NCBI GenBank assembly: GCA_001917535.1
Contig: MNEF01000098.1
Coordinates: 45,241-109,240 of the forward strand
From: Candidatus Rokubacteria bacterium 13_1_40CM_69_27
GTDB taxonomy: Bacteria; Methylomirabilota; Methylomirabilia; Rokubacteriales; CSP1-6
Length of the DNA stretch: 64,000 nucleotides
Reading direction: 5' to 3'
A model generated the notes under the pieces. That model was given only the letters and a program-made list of their open reading frames with translations, had not been told where the DNA came from and did no database searches. Made by a program: the position numbers and the translations under genes. Of the stretch, positions 4,487 through 53,550 are shown piece after piece; position 1 is the first letter of the stretch, and each line of letters starts with the position of its first letter.

Positions 4487-6345
4487 CAGGCCGGACGCTT
4501 GCCCAGCACGGTGGTCACCACGTGGGTGTCGGCCCGGATCTCAGCGGGGGTGCCGTCGGCGAGCAGCCGCCCCCCGTGGAGGGCGACGATCCGGTCCGAG
4601 TAGCCGAAGACGATGTCCATGTCGTGCTCGACCTGGATGATGGCCTTGATCGCGATGCGCTTGGCCGCCGCCACCAGGACCTCCATGATGGCGTGCTTGT
4701 CCCGCGTGCTGACGCCGGACGTGGGCTCGTCCAGGAGGATGACGTCGGGGTGGAGGGCGAAGGCGCCGGCCACGTCGAGCAGCTTCTTGTCCCCCTGAGG
4801 GAGCGTGCCGGCGAGGCAGGACAGCCGGTCGGCGAACCCGAAGAGCGCCGCCACGTCGCCGACCTGCGCCCGGACCTCCGCGTCGCGCGCCAGCGAGGCC
4901 AGGAGCCGGCGGCCGCGGCCCAGGCGCGAGACGACGGTGACCGCCAGGGTCTCGGCGACCGTGAGCCCCGGGAAAATGTTGACGAGCTGAAAGCTGCGGG
5001 CCAGGCCGAGCCGGACCAGGCGCACGGGCCCGATCCCGGCGACGTCCACGCCCTTGAACGTCACGCGGCCGCTCGACGGCTTTCCCAGCCCGCTCAGCAC
5101 GTTCACCAGCGTCGTCTTCCCGGCCCCGTTGGGGCCGATGATCGAGACGAACTCGCCCTCCCGGACCGCCAGCGACACGCCGTCGAGCGCCACCACGTCA
5201 CCGTAGAGCTTCACCACGTCTCGCGCTTCGATGAGCGGACGTGGGCGAGTGCCTGCAGGTCGGGCGCGTGACGGGAGCGGTTCGTGCGCCGGCTTGGCCG
5301 GCGTATCCACTGGGGAGGTTCGGAGGGGGCCGTGAGGCCCCCGCTGACTAGGGATTCGGAGGGGGCCGTGAGGCCCCCGCTGACGATGGATGTCGGAGGG
5401 GGCCGCCGAGGCCCCCTCCGAATCAAACAATCCCATGAGCCCGCGGGGGAAGCAGATGACCACGATGGCCAGGAGCGCGCCGAAGATGAATCTCCAGTAT
5501 TGCGTCAGGGACATGACCTGGTCCTGCAGGAAGATGAAGACGAAGGCACCCAGGATCGGGCCGAAGAAGTTGGCGAAGCCGCCCAGCAACAGCATGAAGA
5601 CCAGGTTGCCCGAGTGCGTCCAGTACGCCAGCAGAGGATCGGCCAGCCCGGTGGGCACGGCCAGCAGCGCTCCGCCGACGCCGCCGAACACGCCGGCGAT
5701 CACGAAGGCCGCCAGGCGGTAGCACCGCGCGCTCACGCCCACCGCCGCTGCCTTGTCGGGGTTCTCGCGGATCGCCCGCAGGCAGAGCCCGAAGGGCGAG
5801 CGCACGATGCGCCACATGACGACGGTGCCCAGGACCAGCAGCGCCAGCGCGTAGAAGTAGTAGGGGCCGGTGAGAAACTCGACCTTGTCGAGGAAGTCGA
5901 AGCCGCGGCCCAGGAGCTTCGGGCGCAGCACGCGCATGCCCTCGTCGCCCCCGGTCAGGGCGTAGAACTTGAAGAGGAACGAGTAGAAGAGCATCCCGAA
6001 GGCCAGCGTCAGCATGCCGAAGTAGATCTTGACGTAGCGCACGCACAAGAGGCCAGTGGGCACCGCCACCACCGCCGCCACCGCGGCCGCGGATACCAGG
6101 ATGGCCTCGAAGTGCACCATGCCGAAGGCGCTGGTCAGGTAGGCCGCGGTGTAGGCGCCGAGCGCCAGGAAGAGGGCATGGCCGAAGGAGAGCAGCCCGG
6201 TGTAGCCGAACAATAAGTTGAGGCCCAGCAGCGCCAGGCCGTAGCCGAAGAATGGCAGCATCAGGGTGGCGTAGTAGGCCCGGCCGGCGAAGGGCACCAG
6301 CGCCACCGCCAGCAGGGCCAGCCCGAGCGCGCCGCGGCCGATCAC
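4486..6345 (-). CDS. livM-livG: Fused LivM permease / LivG ATPase, joined by an in-frame repeat-derived linker
   Basis: A single frame with no stop runs through both domains. The LivM permease part (GVIGRGALGL ... ICFPRGLMGLFDSEG) starts at the GTG at 6345, overlapping the livH stop (GTGA). The LivG ATPase part (LIEARDVVKLYGDVVALDGVSL...GPNGAGKTTL...LSCLAGTLPQGDKKLLDVAGAF...LLDEPTSGV) follows a 12-aa x2 linker encoded by REP-like units. The 130-aa arginine-rich extension of the tracked ORF (to 6738) is rejected. Confidence 0.7.
   Translation of the reverse strand: MIGRGALGLALLAVALVPFAGRAYYATLMLPFFGYGLALLGLNLLFGYTGLLSFGHALFLALGAYTAAYLTSAFGMVHFEAILVSAAAVAAVVAVPTGLLCVRYVKIYFGMLTLAFGMLFYSFLFKFYALTGGDEGMRVLRPKLLGRGFDFLDKVEFLTGPYYFYALALLVLGTVVMWRIVRSPFGLCLRAIRENPDKAAAVGVSARCYRLAAFVIAGVFGGVGGALLAVPTGLADPLLAYWTHSGNLVFMLLLGGFANFFGPILGAFVFIFLQDQVMSLTQYWRFIFGALLAIVVICFPRGLMGLFDSEGASAAPSDIHRQRGPHGPLRIPSQRGPHGPLRTSPVDTPAKPAHEPLPSRARPAGTRPRPLIEARDVVKLYGDVVALDGVSLAVREGEFVSIIGPNGAGKTTLVNVLSGLGKPSSGRVTFKGVDVAGIGPVRLVRLGLARSFQLVNIFPGLTVAETLAVTVVSRLGRGRRLLASLARDAEVRAQVGDVAALFGFADRLSCLAGTLPQGDKKLLDVAGAFALHPDVILLDEPTSGVSTRDKHAIMEVLVAAAKRIAIKAIIQVEHDMDIVFGYSDRIVALHGGRLLADGTPAEIRADTHVVTTVLGKRPA
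5319..5421. repeat. Three tandem REP-like palindromic units lying in frame inside the livM-livG junction
   Basis: Units of ttcggagggggccgtgaggcccccgctgac at 5319-5348 and 5355-5384 (36-bp period), followed by a perfect palindrome tcggagggggcc gccga ggccccctccga at 5393-5421. Other copies of the same family lie elsewhere in the window. Confidence 0.85.
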
Positions 6346-10894: not shown

Positions 10895-10909
10895 AGCGGG
10901 CTAGCCCAG

Positions 10910-10983
10910 TCGGAGGGGGCCTTGATGGCCCCCTCCGAAGCCTCCCCCAGGAAGGGGTTGCACCGGCGAAGCCGGCGCTCGAA
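10910..10983. repeat. REP-like palindromic element between convergent genes
   Basis: tcggagggggcc ttgat ggccccctccga at 10910-10938, a perfect 12-bp stem. It is followed by a conserved tail, cctcccccaggaaggggttgcaccggcgaagccggcgctcgaa, which is also seen at 15256-15292. Confidence 0.85.
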
Positions 10984-11030
10984 ACGGCCACCGGTGGTCG
11001 CAGTCGGCCGGCGCCATTCTTCGCAGGCAC

Positions 11031-12007: not shown

Positions 12008-13518
12008 AAGGAGGACCCTCGGGTGGCCGTGAGGTAGTCGGTCTTGGCGCGGTCCAGCTCCGCGATGACGGCGCGGCGCTCGGCGATCAGCTCACGCGCG
12101 GCCTGGTCGCGCGTGAGCGCCAGCACGCCGAAGCGCAGCACGCGCCGGAGCCGGCCGAGCCCGCGGAAGTAGTGATAGGCCACCACGCCGGTGAGGGGCA
12201 GCGAGAGCGCGAAGAGGGCGGCCCAGCCCCGGCCGGCGAGGCGCGCCACCAGCCCGACCTCGAGCCCCCAGAAGAGGGGAAAGGCGACGATGCTGGCCAG
12301 CAGCCGCGTCGTCGCGTAGTCGGTCTCCTTGCGCGCGGTGGCCCGAGCGAGCCAGCGGGGCACGAAGTAGGGCAGCGCGTTGACGGCGGCGCCGTAGACG
12401 AACACGGGGAAGCCCGCGATGGCGCCCCCGGTGCGCCGGAGGCGCCGCCGGATCGGCGAGTGTCCCAGCCGCGCCTGCACCGCCTCGTCCTTCACCCGGT
12501 AGGCGCGGAGGAGGGCACGGTAGCCCTGTATCCGCTGCCAGATTCGCTCGACCCGCTTCGGCTCGCGCGCCTTGAAGTACTGCACCGCGTCCACGATCGT
12601 GCGCGACAGGCGGAAGAGATCGATCTGCCTGTCAGCGAGCCCGCGCTCCTCCCTCAGCTCGCGGATCAGCTCGCCCCGATAAAGCTCCTCCACGGCCCGG
12701 ACGACCTCGGCGGCCTCGATCCGGTCCACGTGCACCACTTGGGCCTCCATGGCCCACTGGATCGCCGTGGTGAGCGCCTCCACGCCCTTGGTGGCGTCGG
12801 CGTGGTAGGCCGCGACGTACGCGGCGATCGGGATCGGCTCGCCGAAGGAGACGAGCACCCGCCCCCTGAACGACTTGCGTGCTTCGAAGGACAGGCCGAC
12901 CGGAATGAGCCGCAGCTCGCCGGGATGGTCCACCTCGTAACCCAGGGCGATGCGGGCGGCGCCGGTCCTGATGCGCTGGACGCGGGCCTCGGCGTGGGTG
13001 GTGCCCTCGGGATAGATCGCGATGAGCCGGCCCTCGGCGAAGGCCCGATGACATGCCGCGAAGACGTCGGCGTTGCGGTCGGCTCGTCGGCTCGCCTCGG
13101 GCGCAGGGGGCGAGTTTGATTCGCTCGCCTCGCGCGCGGGGGCCCCAGCCCCCGGCCGCGCTGCGGCTCGCCCTGCGGCTCGCACTGCCATCTTGTCCGG
13201 GTCGTCCTGTCTCCGGTAGACGGGGATGGCGCCGCAGGCGGCGAGGAAGCACGCCAAGAGCGGATTGCGGAAGAGCGCGGCGGTGGCCAGATAGTGTGCC
13301 TTGCGGGTGAGGACGGCGCCGACCAGCAGGGAGTCGATGAGGTTGTTGGGGTGGTTGATGCAGAGCAGGACCGGCCCCCGCTCCGGCACCCGCTCGGAGT
13401 GCCGCGCGTCCACGCGCTTGAAGAAGAACCACAGCCAGAACCGCGCGATCAGCCGGACGGCCACGTAGAAGCGATCGCTCCCGGATGCGGCCGGAGCCTC
13501 GGCGACGGTCGTCGTCAT
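12004..13518 (-). CDS. Lysophospholipid/1-acyl-sn-glycerol-3-phosphate acyltransferase (PlsC family) with a C-terminal membrane extension and an internal low-complexity insertion
   Basis: The start is the ATG at 13518 (MTTTVAEAP). It has the HX4D motif NHPNNLID and the IYPEGTTH motif. A 33-aa insertion, AVRAAGRAAARPGAGAPAREASESNSPPAPEASRRADR, lies between motifs II and III and is encoded by the repeat family 2 copy. The 150-aa arginine-rich N-terminus of the tracked ORF is rejected. Confidence 0.75.
   Translation of the reverse strand: MTTTVAEAPAASGSDRFYVAVRLIARFWLWFFFKRVDARHSERVPERGPVLLCINHPNNLIDSLLVGAVLTRKAHYLATAALFRNPLLACFLAACGAIPVYRRQDDPDKMAVRAAGRAAARPGAGAPAREASESNSPPAPEASRRADRNADVFAACHRAFAEGRLIAIYPEGTTHAEARVQRIRTGAARIALGYEVDHPGELRLIPVGLSFEARKSFRGRVLVSFGEPIPIAAYVAAYHADATKGVEALTTAIQWAMEAQVVHVDRIEAAEVVRAVEELYRGELIRELREERGLADRQIDLFRLSRTIVDAVQYFKAREPKRVERIWQRIQGYRALLRAYRVKDEAVQARLGHSPIRRRLRRTGGAIAGFPVFVYGAAVNALPYFVPRWLARATARKETDYATTRLLASIVAFPLFWGLEVGLVARLAGRGWAALFALSLPLTGVVAYHYFRGLGRLRRVLRFGVLALTRDQAARELIAERRAVIAELDRAKTDYLTATRGSSF
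13078..13190. repeat. Direct-repeat family 2 (GCTCGCCTCGGGCGCAGGGG-type) inside the plsC-like coding sequence
   Basis: ggctcgcctcgggcgcaggggg at 13088-13109, gattcgctcgcctcgcgcgcggggg at 13116-13141 and a degenerate gcggctcgccctgcggctcgcactgcc unit after that. Near-identical units are at 59916-60025. Confidence 0.7.
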
Positions 13519-15157: not shown

Positions 15158-15298
15158 CTCGGAGGGGGGTTACGCCCCCTTTCCTCCGTCGGAGGGGGCC
15201 GTCGAGGCCCCCTCCGAGATCCCTGGTCGGAAGGGGCCTCGCGGCCTCCTCCGAGCTACCCCAGAGGATTGCGCCGGCGGAGCCGGCGCTCGAAGCGT
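15158..15298. repeat. Cluster of three REP-like units plus the conserved tail, between the aconitase gene and prpF
   Basis: A degenerate unit at 15158-15188, the perfect unit tcggagggggcc gtcga ggccccctccga at 15189-15217, the variant tcggaaggggcc tcgc ggcctcctccga at 15227-15254, and the tail ccccagaggattgcgccggcggagccggcgctcgaa at 15256-15292. Confidence 0.85.
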
Positions 15299-15327
15299 CG
15301 TCGTCCCCCGCGCTGCGACCGATGGGG

Positions 15328-45941: not shown

Positions 45942-46724
45942 ATGAGTGATCTGCTCTACGAGGTGAAGGACCGGATCGCCACCATCACCTTGAACCGCCC
46001 GGACAAGCTCAACGCCTTCACGGGGCCGATGATCGACGCCTGGGCCGCCTCGCTGGGCGAAGCCCAGCGCGACGACCGCATCCACGTGGTCGTCGTCACC
46101 GGAAGCGGCCGCGCCTTCTGCGCCGGTGGCGACGTGGGGCGCATGGGCGAGGGCAAGCCCAGCGGGCTCGACCACAAGAACCAGCTCTGGGAGCACATCC
46201 ACCGAATCCCCAAGACGCTCGAGGCCATGGACAAGCCGGTGATCGCGATGGTCAACGGCCTGGCGGTGGGGGCGGGCATGGGGATGTGCCTCATGTGCGA
46301 CGTACGCATCGCGTCCGAGGAGGCGCGATTTTCGACGGGCTACGTGAAGGTGGGGCTGGTTCCCGGCGACGGCGACACCTACTTCCTGCCGCGCCTGGTG
46401 GGCGCCGCGAAGGCGCTGGAGCTCTTGTGGACGGCGGACTTCGTCGAGGCGGCCGAGGCGCTCCGCTTGGGGATCGTCAACCGCGTGGTCCCCGCCGCCC
46501 AGCTCAGGGACGCCACCTACGCGCTGGCCGAACAAATCGCCAGCGGGCCCCAGATCCCCGTCCGCATGATCAAGAGGCTGGTCTATCAGAGCCTGCGGCT
46601 CGACCTCCGCACGCACCTCGACCTCGTCTCGTCCCACATGGCGATCGTCCGCGAGACGGCCGACCACGCCGAGGGCGTCGCCGCCTTCAAGGAAAAGCGC
46701 GCGCCGAAGTTCCAGGGGCGGTGA
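45942..46724 (+). CDS. Enoyl-CoA hydratase/isomerase
   Basis: It reads ITLNRPDKLNAF...AFCAGGDV...VNGLAVGAGMGMCLMCDVRIA. Confidence 0.8.
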   Translation: MSDLLYEVKDRIATITLNRPDKLNAFTGPMIDAWAASLGEAQRDDRIHVVVVTGSGRAFCAGGDVGRMGEGKPSGLDHKNQLWEHIHRIPKTLEAMDKPVIAMVNGLAVGAGMGMCLMCDVRIASEEARFSTGYVKVGLVPGDGDTYFLPRLVGAAKALELLWTADFVEAAEALRLGIVNRVVPAAQLRDATYALAEQIASGPQIPVRMIKRLVYQSLRLDLRTHLDLVSSHMAIVRETADHAEGVAAFKEKRAPKFQGR

Positions 46725-46856
46725 CGGGCTGTCCGCTTCCTGGTCACTGTCTGTCAGGCTGACACCCTGCCCGGCCGCCGAGGGATCGGAACCCCTCGAA
46801 AGATCACGTCGGCCTCGCCGTGACGGCGTGGCCCCGGTCTTGCTCTACCGGCCGCC

Positions 46857-47375
46857 GTGGATCTCCACGAGACGAAGGACCGGGTCGCCGTCGCCTTGGT
46901 GGAGTCGATCTTCCGCCGGGCCCGCTACCGCGTGCGGCCCTTCGACGCGGATGGAACGAAGCCCCGATTCGTCCGCGAGGACTTCGCGCCGAGCTTCTTC
47001 GTCTTCGTCCCGGGGCCGGAGGGCGCCGAGCGCGAGTTCCTGATCGACGTCACCTATCGGCCCTTCGTCGAGCAGTTCATCGCGCTCGAGAACAAGCGCC
47101 GGGACTCCTCGATCTTCGTCCTGGCCCGGCGTCACTGGCCGGCGCTGCACTTCGTGCTCGTCACCGATCATCCCGGAGCCGGCCGCTCCTGCTTCCAGGC
47201 CGTCACGCTGGGTGAACGCGGCGCCGAGGTGAGGCTCCGCACGGTCGACCTCGTCGATCTCGCCGAGTTCGGCGTCTTCCCGCACAACGTCGCGGATCAC
47301 GAGGAGCTGCTGCTCCGGATCTTCGCGATGCTCTCGGCCGACCGGCACCGTCGCGAGCAGCCGCACGCCGGCTAG
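46857..47375 (+). CDS. Hypothetical protein, no recognised domain
   Basis: 172 aa with a GTG start, reading VDLHETKDRVAVALVESIFRRARYRVRPFDADG.... Confidence 0.4.
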   Translation: MDLHETKDRVAVALVESIFRRARYRVRPFDADGTKPRFVREDFAPSFFVFVPGPEGAEREFLIDVTYRPFVEQFIALENKRRDSSIFVLARRHWPALHFVLVTDHPGAGRSCFQAVTLGERGAEVRLRTVDLVDLAEFGVFPHNVADHEELLLRIFAMLSADRHRREQPHAG

Positions 47376-47410
47376 GCGCGCGTCGGACTAAGCTCCGTTA
47401 ATAGGCAGAG

Positions 47411-47683
47411 ATGAACGAGGACCCGGACAGCAACCGACGAACGCACCTCGTGATGGTGTGGACGACCCTCCTGTGGCTGTTCGGGACTGTGGCGTACGCC
47501 TACACCTACATCCTACATCGGGTAAGTCTGCCAGACGCCGTCGGCTATGAAGCCGACTGGTCGTGGCAGCTGTTTTTCTTCTCCCTCGTCCGCCTTCCGC
47601 TCTTGATAGCGGGTCTCGTTGCCGTTCTTTGCCTCGAGCGTGTGCTTTGGTCGCGCTGGGGGGCTGCCAGCCGTGCCGCCTAA
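47411..47683 (+). CDS. Small hypothetical membrane protein (90 aa, 2 TM)
   Basis: MNEDPDSNRRTHLVMVWTTLLWLFGTVAYAYTYIL...QLFFFSLVRLPLLIAGLVAVLCL. Its GC content is visibly lower (about 58-60%) than the surrounding region (about 70%). Confidence 0.4.
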   Translation: MNEDPDSNRRTHLVMVWTTLLWLFGTVAYAYTYILHRVSLPDAVGYEADWSWQLFFFSLVRLPLLIAGLVAVLCLERVLWSRWGAASRAA

Positions 47684-47746
47684 CCGGCGATTGGAGCGGC
47701 CCGACGTAGAGCCGTTCGAGCGCGGGCTTCGCCCGCGCAATCCTTG

Positions 47747-47787
47747 CTGGGGGAGGTTTCGGAGGGGGCCGTCGAGGCCCCCTCCGA
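47747..47787. repeat. REP-like palindromic element (full unit with leader)
   Basis: ctgggggaggtt tcggagggggcc gtcga ggccccctccga, lying between convergent genes (the small membrane protein and the DJ-1 gene). Confidence 0.85.
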
Positions 47788-47792
47788 CTAGA

Positions 47793-48374
47793 TCACACCG
47801 CCGAGTAGGCGCGGTACTCCATCTGGGCGGCGATCTCCTCGCGGGCGGCGGCGCCCCAGAACCTCTCGACCAGGTAGAGCCCGAGGTCGAGCGCCGAGGC
47901 GACGCCCCCCGCGGTGACCACCTGCCCCTCGTCGACGATGCGCCGGTCGGTGACGACCTCGCGACAGTAGGGACGGAGAAGGTCGTAGGCCCGGTGATGC
48001 GTGGTCGCCCGCCGGCCAGCGAGATAGCCGGCCTTGCCGAGCAGCAGCGCGCCCGTGCAGACCGACGCCAGCGGGCGCCGGGGCCCCCACGATTTCAGAT
48101 AATCGATCAGGCGCGCGTCGTTGACGAGGGCGCGCGTGCCGAAGCCGCCCGGGACGTAGAGGAGGTCGAAGGCGGCCAGGTCCTCGTAGACCGCGTCGGG
48201 CCTGATCAGGAGCCCGGTCTCGTCCCCGATCTCGGCATCCGTCCCGATGATCCGGTGGGTCACAGCGGGGTCGATCCCCATGGTGGCCACGCGTCGCAGC
48301 GCGTCGTAGCCGCCGATGAAGTCGAGGAAGGTCAGGCGCGGGAACACGAGGAAGGCGATGCGCTTGATGGCCAT
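47793..48374 (-). CDS. DJ-1/PfpI family protein (class I glutamine amidotransferase-like)
   Basis: The start is the ATG at 48374 (MAIKRIAFLVFPRLTFLDF). It has the nucleophile elbow ASVCTGALLLG. The tracked N-terminal extension is rejected. Confidence 0.8.
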   Translation of the reverse strand: MAIKRIAFLVFPRLTFLDFIGGYDALRRVATMGIDPAVTHRIIGTDAEIGDETGLLIRPDAVYEDLAAFDLLYVPGGFGTRALVNDARLIDYLKSWGPRRPLASVCTGALLLGKAGYLAGRRATTHHRAYDLLRPYCREVVTDRRIVDEGQVVTAGGVASALDLGLYLVERFWGAAAREEIAAQMEYRAYSAV

Positions 48375-48379
48375 GGCCG

Positions 48380-49075
48380 TCAGGCGAACGCGCGGGCGAT
48401 GGCGAAGGCGGCGCCGGCGGCCAGCCCGCCGATCAGCGCCGTCTGGAGCGCGCTCCGCGCGGGCGGCGCCCCGGTGAAGCGCGCCTTGATGTACCCGAAG
48501 ACCAGCAGGGCCACGATGGTGACGACGACCGAGACCGTCAGGGCGCTGGTCGCCTTGGGGAAGACGATGTACGGCCAGAGCGGGATGAGCCCGCCCATGA
48601 CGTAGGCGCCGCCGATCGTCAGCGCGCTCGCCAGCGCCCGGCCTGGATCGGGCCGCTCGAGGCCCAACTCGAAGCGCATCATGAAGTCGACCCACCCCTC
48701 CGGGTGCCGTTTCAAGGCGTCGACGAGGGGCCGGGCCTCTTCCGCCTTGACGCCGTAAGTCTCCAGGACCTCGACCACTTCCGCCGCCTCCGCCTCGGGC
48801 TTCTCGCGGACCTCGCGCTGCTCGCGCCGGCGCTCGCTCTCATAATGCTCGGCGTCGCTCCGGGCCGCCAGGTAGCCGCCGAGGCCCATGGCCAGAGCGC
48901 CGGCGGCGATCTCGGCGAGTCCCGCCACCACGATGATCCACGTGGCGTCAATGACCCCCGTGAGCCCCGCCGCCAGCGCGAAGGGCACGGTCAGCCCGTC
49001 CGCCATGCCGAGCACGAGGTCGCGCACGGTCCGGTTGCCCGTGAAGTGCCGCTCGGGGTGCGCCACCGGAATCAT
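48380..49075 (-). CDS. VIT1/CCC1 family iron/manganese transporter
   Basis: The start is the ATG at 49075 (MIPVAHPERHF...DLVLGMADGLTVPFALAAGL). It has a central acidic cytoplasmic helix region (EVREKPEAEAAEVVEVLETYG). Confidence 0.75.
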   Translation of the reverse strand: MIPVAHPERHFTGNRTVRDLVLGMADGLTVPFALAAGLTGVIDATWIIVVAGLAEIAAGALAMGLGGYLAARSDAEHYESERRREQREVREKPEAEAAEVVEVLETYGVKAEEARPLVDALKRHPEGWVDFMMRFELGLERPDPGRALASALTIGGAYVMGGLIPLWPYIVFPKATSALTVSVVVTIVALLVFGYIKARFTGAPPARSALQTALIGGLAAGAAFAIARAFA

Positions 49076-49602
49076 CCCTCGATGGACGCGATGCCGTGCT
49101 TGTGGCGCTGGGCCAGGGCTTGGTAACCGGTGGGATTGGCGCGCACCCAAAACTCGGCCGGGGTCCCGGCCAGGGGCCCCTTGATCTTGGCGGGCGCGCC
49201 GAGGGCGAGCATGCCCTCCGGAATCTCGGTGCCCGGTGTGACCAGGGCGCCGGCGGCGATCATGGCTCGCGCTCCGATCCGGGCGCCGTCGAGGACGGTC
49301 GCCCCGTTGCCGACGAGCGCTTCCTCACCGAGGGTGGCGCCGTGGACCACGCAGGTGTGACCGATCGTCGCGCCGGCACCCACTTCCACCGGATTGACGG
49401 GCGTCACATGGACGACGGCGCAGTCCTGGACGTTGGCGCCCCGCCGGATGACGATCGGACCAAAGTCAGCCCGGATGACGGCGTTGTACCAGATGGAGGC
49501 GTTCTCCTCGACCGTGACGTCGCCGATCAGGACCGCGGTCGGCGCGATGAACGCGGACGGGTGCACGTGGGGGTGCTTTCCCTCGAAGCTGAACAGTGGC
49601 AT
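49072..49602 (-). CDS. Gamma-class carbonic anhydrase / hexapeptide-repeat (CaiE/PaaY-like) protein
   Basis: 176 aa reading HPSAFIAPTAVLIGDVTVEENASIWYNAVIRAD with left-handed beta-helix repeats. Confidence 0.8.
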   Translation of the reverse strand: MPLFSFEGKHPHVHPSAFIAPTAVLIGDVTVEENASIWYNAVIRADFGPIVIRRGANVQDCAVVHVTPVNPVEVGAGATIGHTCVVHGATLGEEALVGNGATVLDGARIGARAMIAAGALVTPGTEIPEGMLALGAPAKIKGPLAGTPAEFWVRANPTGYQALAQRHKHGIASIEG

Positions 49603-49675
49603 GGGGCGGGCCCTCGCAGTATGCTCGGAATCGGTTCCTATCTTACGCGAAGTCCTTCGGGCGATGGAGGGTGGA

Positions 49676-50701
49676 ATGCCGATGCCGAGGATCGCCGCCG
49701 TGGCGACGGCGACGCCCCCCTACCGGTTCACGCAGTCCGACCTGCTGGCGCTGTCCGGCTACACCGACGCGCAGCGCCGCGGCTTCTTCGAGCGCAGCGA
49801 GATCGAGAGCCGCTTTCTCTACATCGACCCCCGGCGCTTCCGTCCCGACGAGAGCGTGGATGAGCTGCAGGACCGCTTTCGGCGCGGCGCGCTGGAGCTC
49901 TCGGAGGCGGCGGCGCGGGGGGCGCTGGCGCGGGCCGGCTGGACGGCGGGCGACGTGGACTTCGTGGCCACCACCACCTGCACCGGGCGCCTCACCCCCA
50001 GCCTGGACGCTCACCTGATCGGGCGCCTCGGCTGTCGGGCCGACGTCCAGCGCGCGCACATCGGTGACACCGGCTGCGCCTCCGCGATGGTGGCGCTGCA
50101 GCAGGCGTGGAATCATCTCCACGCCTTCCCGGAGCACCGCGCGCTCGTGGTGGCGGTGGAGATCTGCTCGGCCGCGTACTTCCTCGATCAGCGCCTGGAG
50201 TCGGCGGTCGCCCACGCCATTTTCGCCGACGGCGCCGGAGCCCTGGCGCTGTCGGCTACCGGCCAGGGCCCTGCCGTCGTGGCCCACCGCACGCTCTTCA
50301 GACCCGAGCATCTCGACGCCATGGGCTTCGAGTATCCCGGCGGCCGCCCCCGGGTGGTCCTCTCCAAGGACGTGCGTCGCATCGGCGCCGGCATGCTCGA
50401 CGAGATGACGAAGGTGTTGATGGACGCGCAGGGGCTCAAGCGCGAGGATATCCGCCACTGGATCCTGCACTCGGCGGGGCGGCGCGTGCTCGATCGCGCG
50501 CGCGTGCTGCTCGCGCTCACCGAGGAGCAGATGGCGCACGCGCGGGCGGTGCTGAGAAAGTACGGCAACATGTCATCGGCGACGATCCTCTTCGTGCTCG
50601 AGGAGATGCTACGCGCCGAGTCGACGGTGCCGGGCGACTGGGGGCTCATGATCGGCCTCGGGCCCGGGTTCGCGGCCGAGGGCGCCCTGCTCAGATGGTA
50701 G
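49676..50701 (+). CDS. Type III polyketide synthase (chalcone/stilbene synthase family)
   Basis: It has the Cys-His-Asn triad context (TTTCTGRLTPSLDAHL, GCASAMVALQQA, ILHSAGRRVL, GPGFAAEGALLRW). The ATG at 49676 has a GGAGGG site 4 nt upstream, with alternatives at 49664 and 49682. Confidence 0.85.
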   Translation: MPMPRIAAVATATPPYRFTQSDLLALSGYTDAQRRGFFERSEIESRFLYIDPRRFRPDESVDELQDRFRRGALELSEAAARGALARAGWTAGDVDFVATTTCTGRLTPSLDAHLIGRLGCRADVQRAHIGDTGCASAMVALQQAWNHLHAFPEHRALVVAVEICSAAYFLDQRLESAVAHAIFADGAGALALSATGQGPAVVAHRTLFRPEHLDAMGFEYPGGRPRVVLSKDVRRIGAGMLDEMTKVLMDAQGLKREDIRHWILHSAGRRVLDRARVLLALTEEQMAHARAVLRKYGNMSSATILFVLEEMLRAESTVPGDWGLMIGLGPGFAAEGALLRW

Positions 50702-50824
50702 TGCGAGCCGCAGGACGGCCGGGGGCGGGGGCCCCCGCGTCCGAGGCGAGCCGATGAATCGAGTGGTGCGAGCCGCAGGACGGCCGGGGGCGGGGGCCCC
50801 CGCGTCCGAGGCGAGCGGTGTCCC

Positions 50825-53437: not shown

Positions 53438-53484
53438 CGGCGTGTTGGAGTACGCACCGGATCTGGACTCCTCCCGTTCGAGCG

Positions 53485-53550
53485 CCGGCTTTGCCGGCGC
53501 CACCTGTTCCTGGGGGAGGTTTCGGAAGGGGGGCGAAGCCCCCCGCCGAG
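53485..53550. repeat. REP-like element (variant) plus a short hairpin
   Basis: gccggc ttt gccggc at 53485-53501, then ctgggggaggtt tcggaagggggg cgaa gccccccgccga at 53510-53549. It lies between convergent genes (the RraA-family gene and the M23 peptidase). Confidence 0.75.

Follow-up and report, generated by a model that had tools for sequence, protein, structure and literature searches.

Nucleases of the PD-(D/E)xK type, among them the archaeal Holliday-junction resolvase Hjc and the restriction-like endonuclease domain of R2 retrotransposons, are recognised by an alpha-beta-beta-beta-alpha-beta core and by a catalytic signature of a Glu, an Asp, and a (D/E)xK motif, and archaeal tRNA-splicing endonucleases are built from structural and catalytic subunits. 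Orphan immunity genes of polymorphic toxin systems are likewise a known phenomenon, as described for arrays in Vibrio cholerae (PMC5361080). Here, we analysed a 64-kb stretch of DNA (64,000 nucleotides (nt) of contig MNEF01000098.1 from Candidatus Rokubacteria bacterium 13_1_40CM_69_27; hereafter, the window), in which two adjacent genes, orf172 and orf90, are followed by a repetitive extragenic palindromic (REP)-like element at positions 46857-47789. A preliminary description of this interval, made from the sequence alone, had taken it for a horizontally acquired, low-GC island of two genes. The interval is instead probably to be read, albeit with some reserve, as two independent features: namely, orf172, a core gene for a pseudo-nuclease-like protein, and orf90, an orphan, cassette-derived gene of immunity type. 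The two genes do not constitute a module, and the "island" is not a unit. The synteny, the insertion, the composition, the fold, the motif states, and the gene contexts are observed, and the loss of nuclease activity, the dependence on sigma-54, the immunity function, and the insertion route are interpretations. Both features fit known kinds, the particular families being undescribed; nothing in the locus is surprising in kind, and the value of the analysis lies mainly in annotation and in clear experiments, as well as in correcting a plausible misreading, by which adjacency and the lack of a recognisable domain are taken to make a module.

The two open reading frames (ORFs) are located on the forward strand, as previously described: orf172 at 46857-47375 (172 aa with a GTG start) and orf90 at 47411-47683 (90 aa). 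In terms of base composition, only the second gene is unusual. The GC content of orf90 is 0.615 in the window of 71.1% GC (0.711), in agreement with the drop of about ten points first noticed, and its GC content at third codon positions (GC3) is 0.758, below those of 35 window genes (0.912 +/- 0.023 (sd) with a minimum of 0.862). Indeed, the 273-nt stretch with the lowest GC content in the entire 64 kb begins at 47381. By the same comparison, orf172 does not deviate (GC, 0.690; GC3, 0.919) and is typical of the window, the GC3 of its neighbouring genes being 0.90-0.94; "low-GC island" is hence wrong for the first gene.

The flanks are also those given in the preliminary description. Upstream of orf172 are genes for an SDR, an acyl-CoA dehydrogenase (ACAD), and an enoyl-CoA hydratase (ECH), and downstream a convergent DJ-1/PfpI gene (47793-48380, reverse strand; Pfam DJ-1_PfpI, E = 3.4e-21) forms the right border of the inserted segment described below. 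This context of orf172 was common to 13 fetched loci (numbered with the prefix L) besides the window. The order SDR-ACAD-ECH-orf172 was found in L001-L003, L006-L009, L044, L046, L048, and L088, where a subset of DJ-1, VIT1, and a hexapeptide-repeat protein (HEX) comes next, with a type III polyketide synthase beyond; L010 shares the DJ1-VIT1-HEX side, and its contig ends before the upstream genes. Among the syntenic loci, the identity of orf172 is 55-70% and that of ECH 84-90%, and the ratio of nonsynonymous to synonymous substitution rates (dN/dS) is 0.32-0.41 for orf172 versus 0.12-0.22 for ECH; orf172 is under constraint, which is looser than that on ECH. Given the native GC3, the conserved synteny, and the constrained dN/dS, we regard orf172 as a vertically inherited core gene. 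It is taken to form a transcription unit of its own. The horizontal acquisition once proposed for it is contradicted by that native composition together with the synteny in relatives.

At the junction of orf172 and DJ-1, furthermore, four relatives could be aligned with the window (L007, L008, L010, and L088), and the stop codons of the two convergent genes are separated by about 20 nt in these relatives. The window has about 400 extra bases at this junction, which correspond to orf90 and the REP-like element and are absent in all four. Both thus belong to one insertion peculiar to this strain, placed where the 3' ends of orf172 and DJ-1 face each other. A horizontally acquired island is marked by an atypical composition and by its absence from relatives; orf90 and the REP-like element show both marks and orf172 neither, so that the two genes taken as one unit do not make such an island.

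A single accessory module of two genes acquired together, serving as a toxin/immunity or defence system, would be suggested by the adjacency of the genes on the same strand, 35 nt apart and with no terminator in between, and also by the low GC content of orf90 and the lack of a recognisable sequence domain in either gene; neither protein matches any Pfam, NCBIfam, PADLOC, or PHROGs family. We nonetheless consider such a module very improbable, because the composition of orf172 is native and its synteny is kept without orf90 in the 13 other syntenic loci, because the neighbours of orf90 relatives are unrelated in every context, and because no PADLOC match was obtained. No orf172 homologue was found in any orf90-family locus and no orf90 homologue in any orf172-family locus fetched, and across five contexts of orf90 neither a conserved partner nor a shared neighbour was seen. 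A 182-aa protein upstream of an orf90 relative in L005 was compared with orf172 as a possible relative and turned out to be unrelated. The pairing in the window is thus an accident of insertion. What survives of the proposed toxin/immunity module concerns orf90 alone, which has a foreign composition, is strain-specific, and belongs to a family located behind an Rhs toxin elsewhere; orf172 has no part in it, and the toxin partner is missing from the window.

With the two genes separated, we can turn to orf172, for which 379 homologues (E <= 1e-3) were found, all without annotation. The family is present in 128 species-representative genomes, almost all of them Rokubacteria/Methylomirabilota, and an exhaustive search of 1.84 billion cluster representatives with the orf172 profile found only 182. 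The AlphaFold2 model of orf172, based on 61 sequences, is of good quality (predicted local distance difference test (pLDDT), 87.6; predicted template modelling score (pTM), 0.85) and has the alpha-beta-beta-beta-alpha-beta core of PD-(D/E)xK nucleases. In Foldseek, the top matches of this model were tRNA-splicing and cap-snatching endonucleases, which were weak, and no match to PDB was obtained at E <= 0.001; in addition, weak, sub-threshold matches resembling TnsA of Tn7 were found for 9 of the 61 family members. A profile search against PDB sequences hit only a haemoglobin, which was dismissed as a chance match. Compared with known PD-(D/E)xK nucleases, therefore, orf172 shares the core fold but has no detectable sequence relationship to any Pfam/PDB family, and it is distinguished by an extra beta-hairpin, a long C-terminal helix, and a second conserved block, VLVTDxPxxGRSCFQ.

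The consensus of the family, including distant members of about 30% identity, is E16...P45-D46...E64-V-K66-Y-R followed by the VLVTDxPxxGRSCFQ block, and the consensus residues fall in helix 1, at the start of strand 2, and in strand 3, which are the classical places of the PD-(D/E)xK signature. Among the 72 loci without the promoter motif described below, E-D-E-K was found in 55 and K66 in 71. In contrast, the ECH-syntenic clade including the window has lost K66 in 13 of 13 loci (replaced with Thr, Ala, Ser, or Glu) and D46 in 11 of 13 (replacements among orthologues being Ser, Thr, Asn, and Arg); in the window protein, the positions are E16, S46, D64, and T66, and the catalytic Asp and Lys of PD-(D/E)xK nucleases are both missing. 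These ECH-syntenic loci form one long-branched monophyletic clade in a neighbour-joining tree, the sister of which consists of two members with the promoter motif in which K66 is kept. A canonical copy also exists in at least six of the eight genomes bearing the Lys-less copy, within the 80 loci returned. As K66 and usually D46 are replaced while the rest of the protein is under purifying selection, we infer that orf172 in the window has lost its activity or has at least taken on another task, and that, as a paralogue of an active nuclease, it has a binding or regulatory role.

Several points weigh against this assignment. The catalytic positions were assigned from the sequence motif and predicted secondary structure without three-dimensional superposition, and the neighbour-joining tree has no bootstrap support. 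Moreover, the window protein retains D64, E16, and E41/D42, which might make up an altered active site. Indeed, some PD-(D/E)xK enzymes vary the position of the Lys, and orf172 might still be an active nuclease with a rearranged active site composed of, for example, E16, E41/D42, D64, and R68, which would fit the retention of several acidic residues and the invariant Y67-R68-P69 as well as the persisting purifying selection. We regard this as unlikely, however, because the positions equivalent to the Asp and Lys hold small or polar residues that differ between orthologues, a pattern more suggestive of relaxed constraint than of a new catalytic residue being conserved, and also because the ECH-syntenic clade evolves faster. 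The non-catalytic paralogue, which we prefer, has a likeness in the archaeal tRNA-splicing endonucleases with their structural and catalytic subunits, in that a Lys-less copy occurs beside a canonical one and splicing endonucleases were the top Foldseek matches; this analogy is functional only, and there is no evidence of heteromers for the orf172 paralogues. A first structural and evolutionary handle is now available on this wholly unannotated family of 128 species-representative genomes, and the family offers a natural pair of presumably active and inactive paralogues with different types of promoters.

The promoter in front of the ECH-adjacent copies appears to be of the sigma-54 type. The sequence TGGCCCCGGTCTTGCT (46829-46844, forward strand), with GG at -24 and GC at -12, has the spacing of TGGCAC-N5-TTGCW and matches the consensus TGGCAC-N5-TTGCT as quoted in PMC12316311. 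From this site, transcription is predicted to start at around 46855, leaving a leader of about 2 nt in the window. While TGGCCCCGGTCTTGCT is the sole exact match to TGGC-N7-TTGCW in the 64-kb window, 0.52 matches are expected by chance in 64 kb, so that the single match alone is not significant. The weight of the sigma-54 promoter hence comes from footprinting across loci: TGGC and TTGC(T) are kept throughout the 13 ECH-syntenic loci, the window being one of them (12 if L002 and L003, which are near-duplicates, are counted once), whereas the spacer bases vary. Of 21 motif matches in 852 kb of loci, furthermore, 12 are ECH-syntenic orf172 sites. In the ECH-syntenic loci, the motif is positioned 12-19 nt before the conserved MDL start, implying a leader of 2-9 nt, and a Shine-Dalgarno sequence was found in none of the 13; in contrast, GGAG/GAGG is present in 53 of the 72 loci without the motif, many of which also have a TACTAT -10 box. 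Transcription of orf172 hence probably starts at a promoter of the sigma-54 type and yields an mRNA with almost no leader.

Also upstream is a palindrome, TGTCAGGCTGACA (46752-46764), the centre of which is about 97 nt before the predicted transcription start. A TG(C/T)CAnGCTGACAC block is conserved in the otherwise diverged spacer between ECH and orf172 of the aligned syntenic loci, the consensus of the palindrome across loci being TGYCAnGCTGACA, and an A-rich (GAAA) patch is conserved upstream as well. This palindrome is a candidate upstream activator site (UAS), to which an enhancer-binding protein would bind. The conservation of the motif around a variable spacer and its correct spacing are features shared with sigma-54 promoters, with which the upstream palindrome and the A-rich patch would be in keeping; orf172 differs from them in the distance of only 12-19 nt between the motif and the start codon. 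On the other side, a search of the window and of about 0.81 Mb of fetched loci for GAFTGA and RpoN-box motifs revealed neither rpoN nor an enhancer-binding protein, and no literature linking Rokubacteria to sigma-54 was found, both of which count against the sigma-54 assignment, as does the number of matches expected by chance.

Some observations on the promoters of related loci may be added here. In L032 (3683-3698) and L029 (2118-2133), an MlaC-like gene has a perfect sigma-54 consensus, TGGCACCGCGGTTGCA, 13 nt in front of its ATG, and a canonical-type orf172 homologue follows about 1.3 kb downstream, apparently in the same operon; these TGGCACCGCGGTTGCA sites are a second near-leaderless case of the sigma-54 type in the lineage. 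The canonical paralogues (L011-L075) share a TACTAT -10-like box about 60 nt before the start (e.g., L045:4940-5000). Next come a short stem-loop, which is conserved and seems to show compensatory changes (GCGCC...GGCGC versus GCACC...GGTGC), a GGGTTTC tract, and a GGAGG ribosome-binding site, and this arrangement may represent a regulatory 5' untranslated region (UTR). Rfam gave no match for positions 46500-48000 of the window or for the 5' UTR taken from one canonical paralogue.

As for orf90, the gene is genuine: its family has 81 members of 70-90 aa with the conserved motif GYExxWxWQLFFFSLVRLP, and its dN/dS is 0.23-0.42. Two long helices (residues 5-38 and 46-89) are predicted to form a helical hairpin, and together with two hydrophobic peaks they fit the two transmembrane (TM) segments proposed before. 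In the NCBI annotation (AUH29_13485), the gene begins at Met15 (47453) and encodes 76 aa; we favour the upstream ATG at 47411 (90 aa) because of the boundary of the cassette and the closest relatives. As no terminator separates orf172 from orf90, transcripts begun at the orf172 promoter probably read through into orf90 and account for its expression.

The closest relatives of orf90 (L004, L089-L091, L098, and L102) are parts of arrays of low GC content, in which small orphan ORFs share one strand; an RHH-PIN pair is present in one array. Between the ORFs lie repeats of 60-93 nt, which start with RYYYAAC, end with GTTRRRY, and fold as imperfect hairpins (-25 to -31 kcal/mol, z ~ -3). An nhmmer profile of attC built from five sites recovered untrained sites in L004, L098, and L102 and half-sites in L005, L092, L096, and L097, while a simple attC finder gave no sites; attC-like sites were found in L004, L089, L098, and L102, and a complete attC after the ORF in L089, L098, and L004. 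Judging from sequence and predicted structure, these repeats are attC sites of the integron type. The orf90 relatives thus resemble integron cassettes in being single promoterless ORFs between such hairpins, and their same-strand arrays also carry toxin-antitoxin genes.

Homologous boundaries are recognisable in the window. At the 5' boundary of the cassette-like unit, GTTAATA (47397-47403, forward strand) is a putative, degenerate integron core site agreeing with GTTRRRY at five of seven positions; the offset of its GTTA from the ATG is that of GTTAGGC in L098, L096, and L089, and a shared GGCAG follows. At the other end, an attC-like 5' arm (47678-47706, forward strand) begins with the inverse core (R'') GCCTAAC at 47678-47684, which overlaps the stop codon TAA. 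This arm matches the 5' arm of L098 at 25 of 30 bases, the next-best match in the window on either strand being 20, and the 23 nt after GCCTAAC are identical to the L098 arm at 18 of 23 positions. The 3' arm is missing, so that R'' and the 5' arm are all that is present of the complete arrangement R''-L''...L'-R', and the REP-like element starts (GTTCGAG, 47714) where the 3' arm is expected. Based on these traces, orf90 is best described as a decayed, immobilised cassette of the integron type. It differs from a functional cassette in its half attC, its degenerate core site, and the lack of an integrase or attI nearby.

It is also possible, albeit less so than the integron-type origin, that orf90 arrived by illegitimate recombination or along with the REP-like element, in which case GTTA and GCCTAAC would have been inherited from the donor array. 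The absence of the 3' arm of attC and the abutment of the REP-like element on the attC remnant would be consistent with such an arrival, and so would several points that weigh against the decayed cassette: GTTAATA deviates from GTTRRRY, the attC profile, built from complete sites, misses the half-site in the window, and an integron integrase was seen in none of the loci. In the window, no integrase or attI is present within about 3 kb on each side, to which the recombinase scan was limited and where we found genes for SDR, ACAD, ECH, DJ-1, VIT1, the hexapeptide-repeat protein, and the type III polyketide synthase. The ends of the inserted unit nonetheless coincide with the cassette boundaries of the relatives and not with arbitrary points, which is what leads us to retain the decayed cassette; its insertion could have been a secondary-site event at GTT or illegitimate recombination.

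A lone cassette of the orf90 type was also observed in L005 (6480-6560), and in the same context in L092 and L096, where it has half an attC and sits beside a putative tRNA gene and a gene for an AI-2E transporter; this context suggests that single cassettes have repeatedly been fixed outside arrays.

A possible function of the orf90 family is indicated by members located behind Rhs proteins. In L094 and L095, a member follows a 1489-aa Rhs protein by 2-5 nt, and the Rhs proteins are identical while the flanks are different. Another member follows an Rhs protein that is 89% identical to that of L094/L095 (L111), and yet another follows a divergent Rhs protein (L107), the C-terminal toxin domain of which is 51-55% identical (51% between L094 and L107 and 55% between L111 and L107). 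In L093, the member is preceded by a 99-aa orphan fragment of the same toxin domain (E = 6e-17). Across these pairs, the toxin domain and the small protein diverge together. The toxin domain itself comprises about 150 aa (L094:9528-9992, L111:5522-5986, and L107:5516-5998) and has the pattern GLDIAVIExGPTxGNPIGHTAI ... NC ... AAGIPN ... QF with conserved His and Cys.

Because the canonical layout of toxin and immunity genes recurs in diverging pairs, the orf90 family is a probable cognate immunity protein of one Rhs C-terminal toxin domain, and its conserved GYE-DW-W loop would face the periplasm in this role. Two points weigh against it: the Rhs toxin domain matches nothing in Pfam or PDB, and the Rhs-linked members are 39-55% identical to orf90 and not its closest relatives. 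Some members of the family also stand alone, which would be expected if orf90 were a small membrane protein of generic kind, or else a toxin that acts on membranes itself. Either of these is quite improbable, given the spacing of 2-5 nt repeated after the same family of Rhs toxin domain in divergent pairs and the member after the orphan toxin fragment, again in the standard toxin-immunity layout. The family therefore still reads best as immunity proteins and points to an undescribed Rhs toxin-immunity pair. The window lacks any homologue of this toxin domain, so that orf90 does not occupy an immunity position there and is considered to be an orphan. In this respect, it resembles the orphan immunity arrays of V. 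cholerae (PMC5361080) in being of immunity type, without a toxin, and horizontally acquired, but it stands alone, outside any toxin locus and at an unrelated site of the chromosome, and its toxin and immunity families are both undescribed. Cassette-borne orphan immunity genes in uncultivated soil bacteria bear on the spread of interbacterial defence genes.

The remaining part of the insertion is the REP-like element (47714-47789), a unit of about 80 nt with two hairpins (GTTCGAGCGCGGGCTTCGCCCGCGC ... GGAGGGGGCC-GTCGA-GGCCCCCTCC), which confirms the REP copy noted downstream of orf90. Further two-hairpin copies are found near 10908-10990, 15189-15300, and 53477-53545, and hairpin-only copies at 5393 and 31541; in the window, there are at least five related copies of this dispersed palindrome, at least four of which share the longer two-hairpin unit. 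The region of 47676-47789 has a fold energy of -37.7 kcal/mol (z = -3.9). Like REP elements, this is a dispersed, intergenic, GC-rich hairpin unit between convergent genes, from which it differs in being a two-hairpin composite of about 80 nt specific to its genome. Between the convergent genes, the element is likely to terminate or stabilise transcripts, and its hairpin would close those arriving from both sides.

More speculatively, the two features may each be part of a wider phenomenon, and we put this forward as a linked pair of rather doubtful proposals. The ECH-adjacent clade of orf172 might be under the control of sigma-54, essentially leaderless, and catalytically dead, and might modulate or partner an active paralogue within a nuclease family found in Rokubacteria alone. 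In these soil lineages, integron-type cassettes might serve as vehicles of orphan Rhs-immunity genes, which could become fixed outside any integron. If the latter is true, the Rhs toxin domain, in which His and Cys are conserved, would be a new one, and so would the immunity family with two TM segments.

Several minor observations were made on the surroundings. The region from orf172 to the hexapeptide-repeat gene (47793-49150) is a hotspot of gain and loss in comparison with L001, L002, L006-L010, L044, and L088. DJ-1 is variable among the relatives, being present in L007, L008, L010, and L088 and absent in L001, L002, L006, L009, and L044, and VIT1 is absent in L001. Further downstream (49394-50701 and beyond in the window; L001:7139-10057), a cluster for a type III polyketide synthase, a methyltransferase, and an FAD-monooxygenase is conserved, the organisation of which resembles that of phenolic-lipid (alkylresorcinol-type) biosynthesis. 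At the end of the polyketide synthase gene, a second family of dispersed repeats, GCGAGCCGCAGGACGGCCGGGGGCGGGGGCCCCCGCGTCCGAGGCGAGC, is tandemly duplicated (50698-50751 and 50763-50816; 98% identical with a 65-nt spacing), and inverted copies of this repeat occur at 13116-13174.

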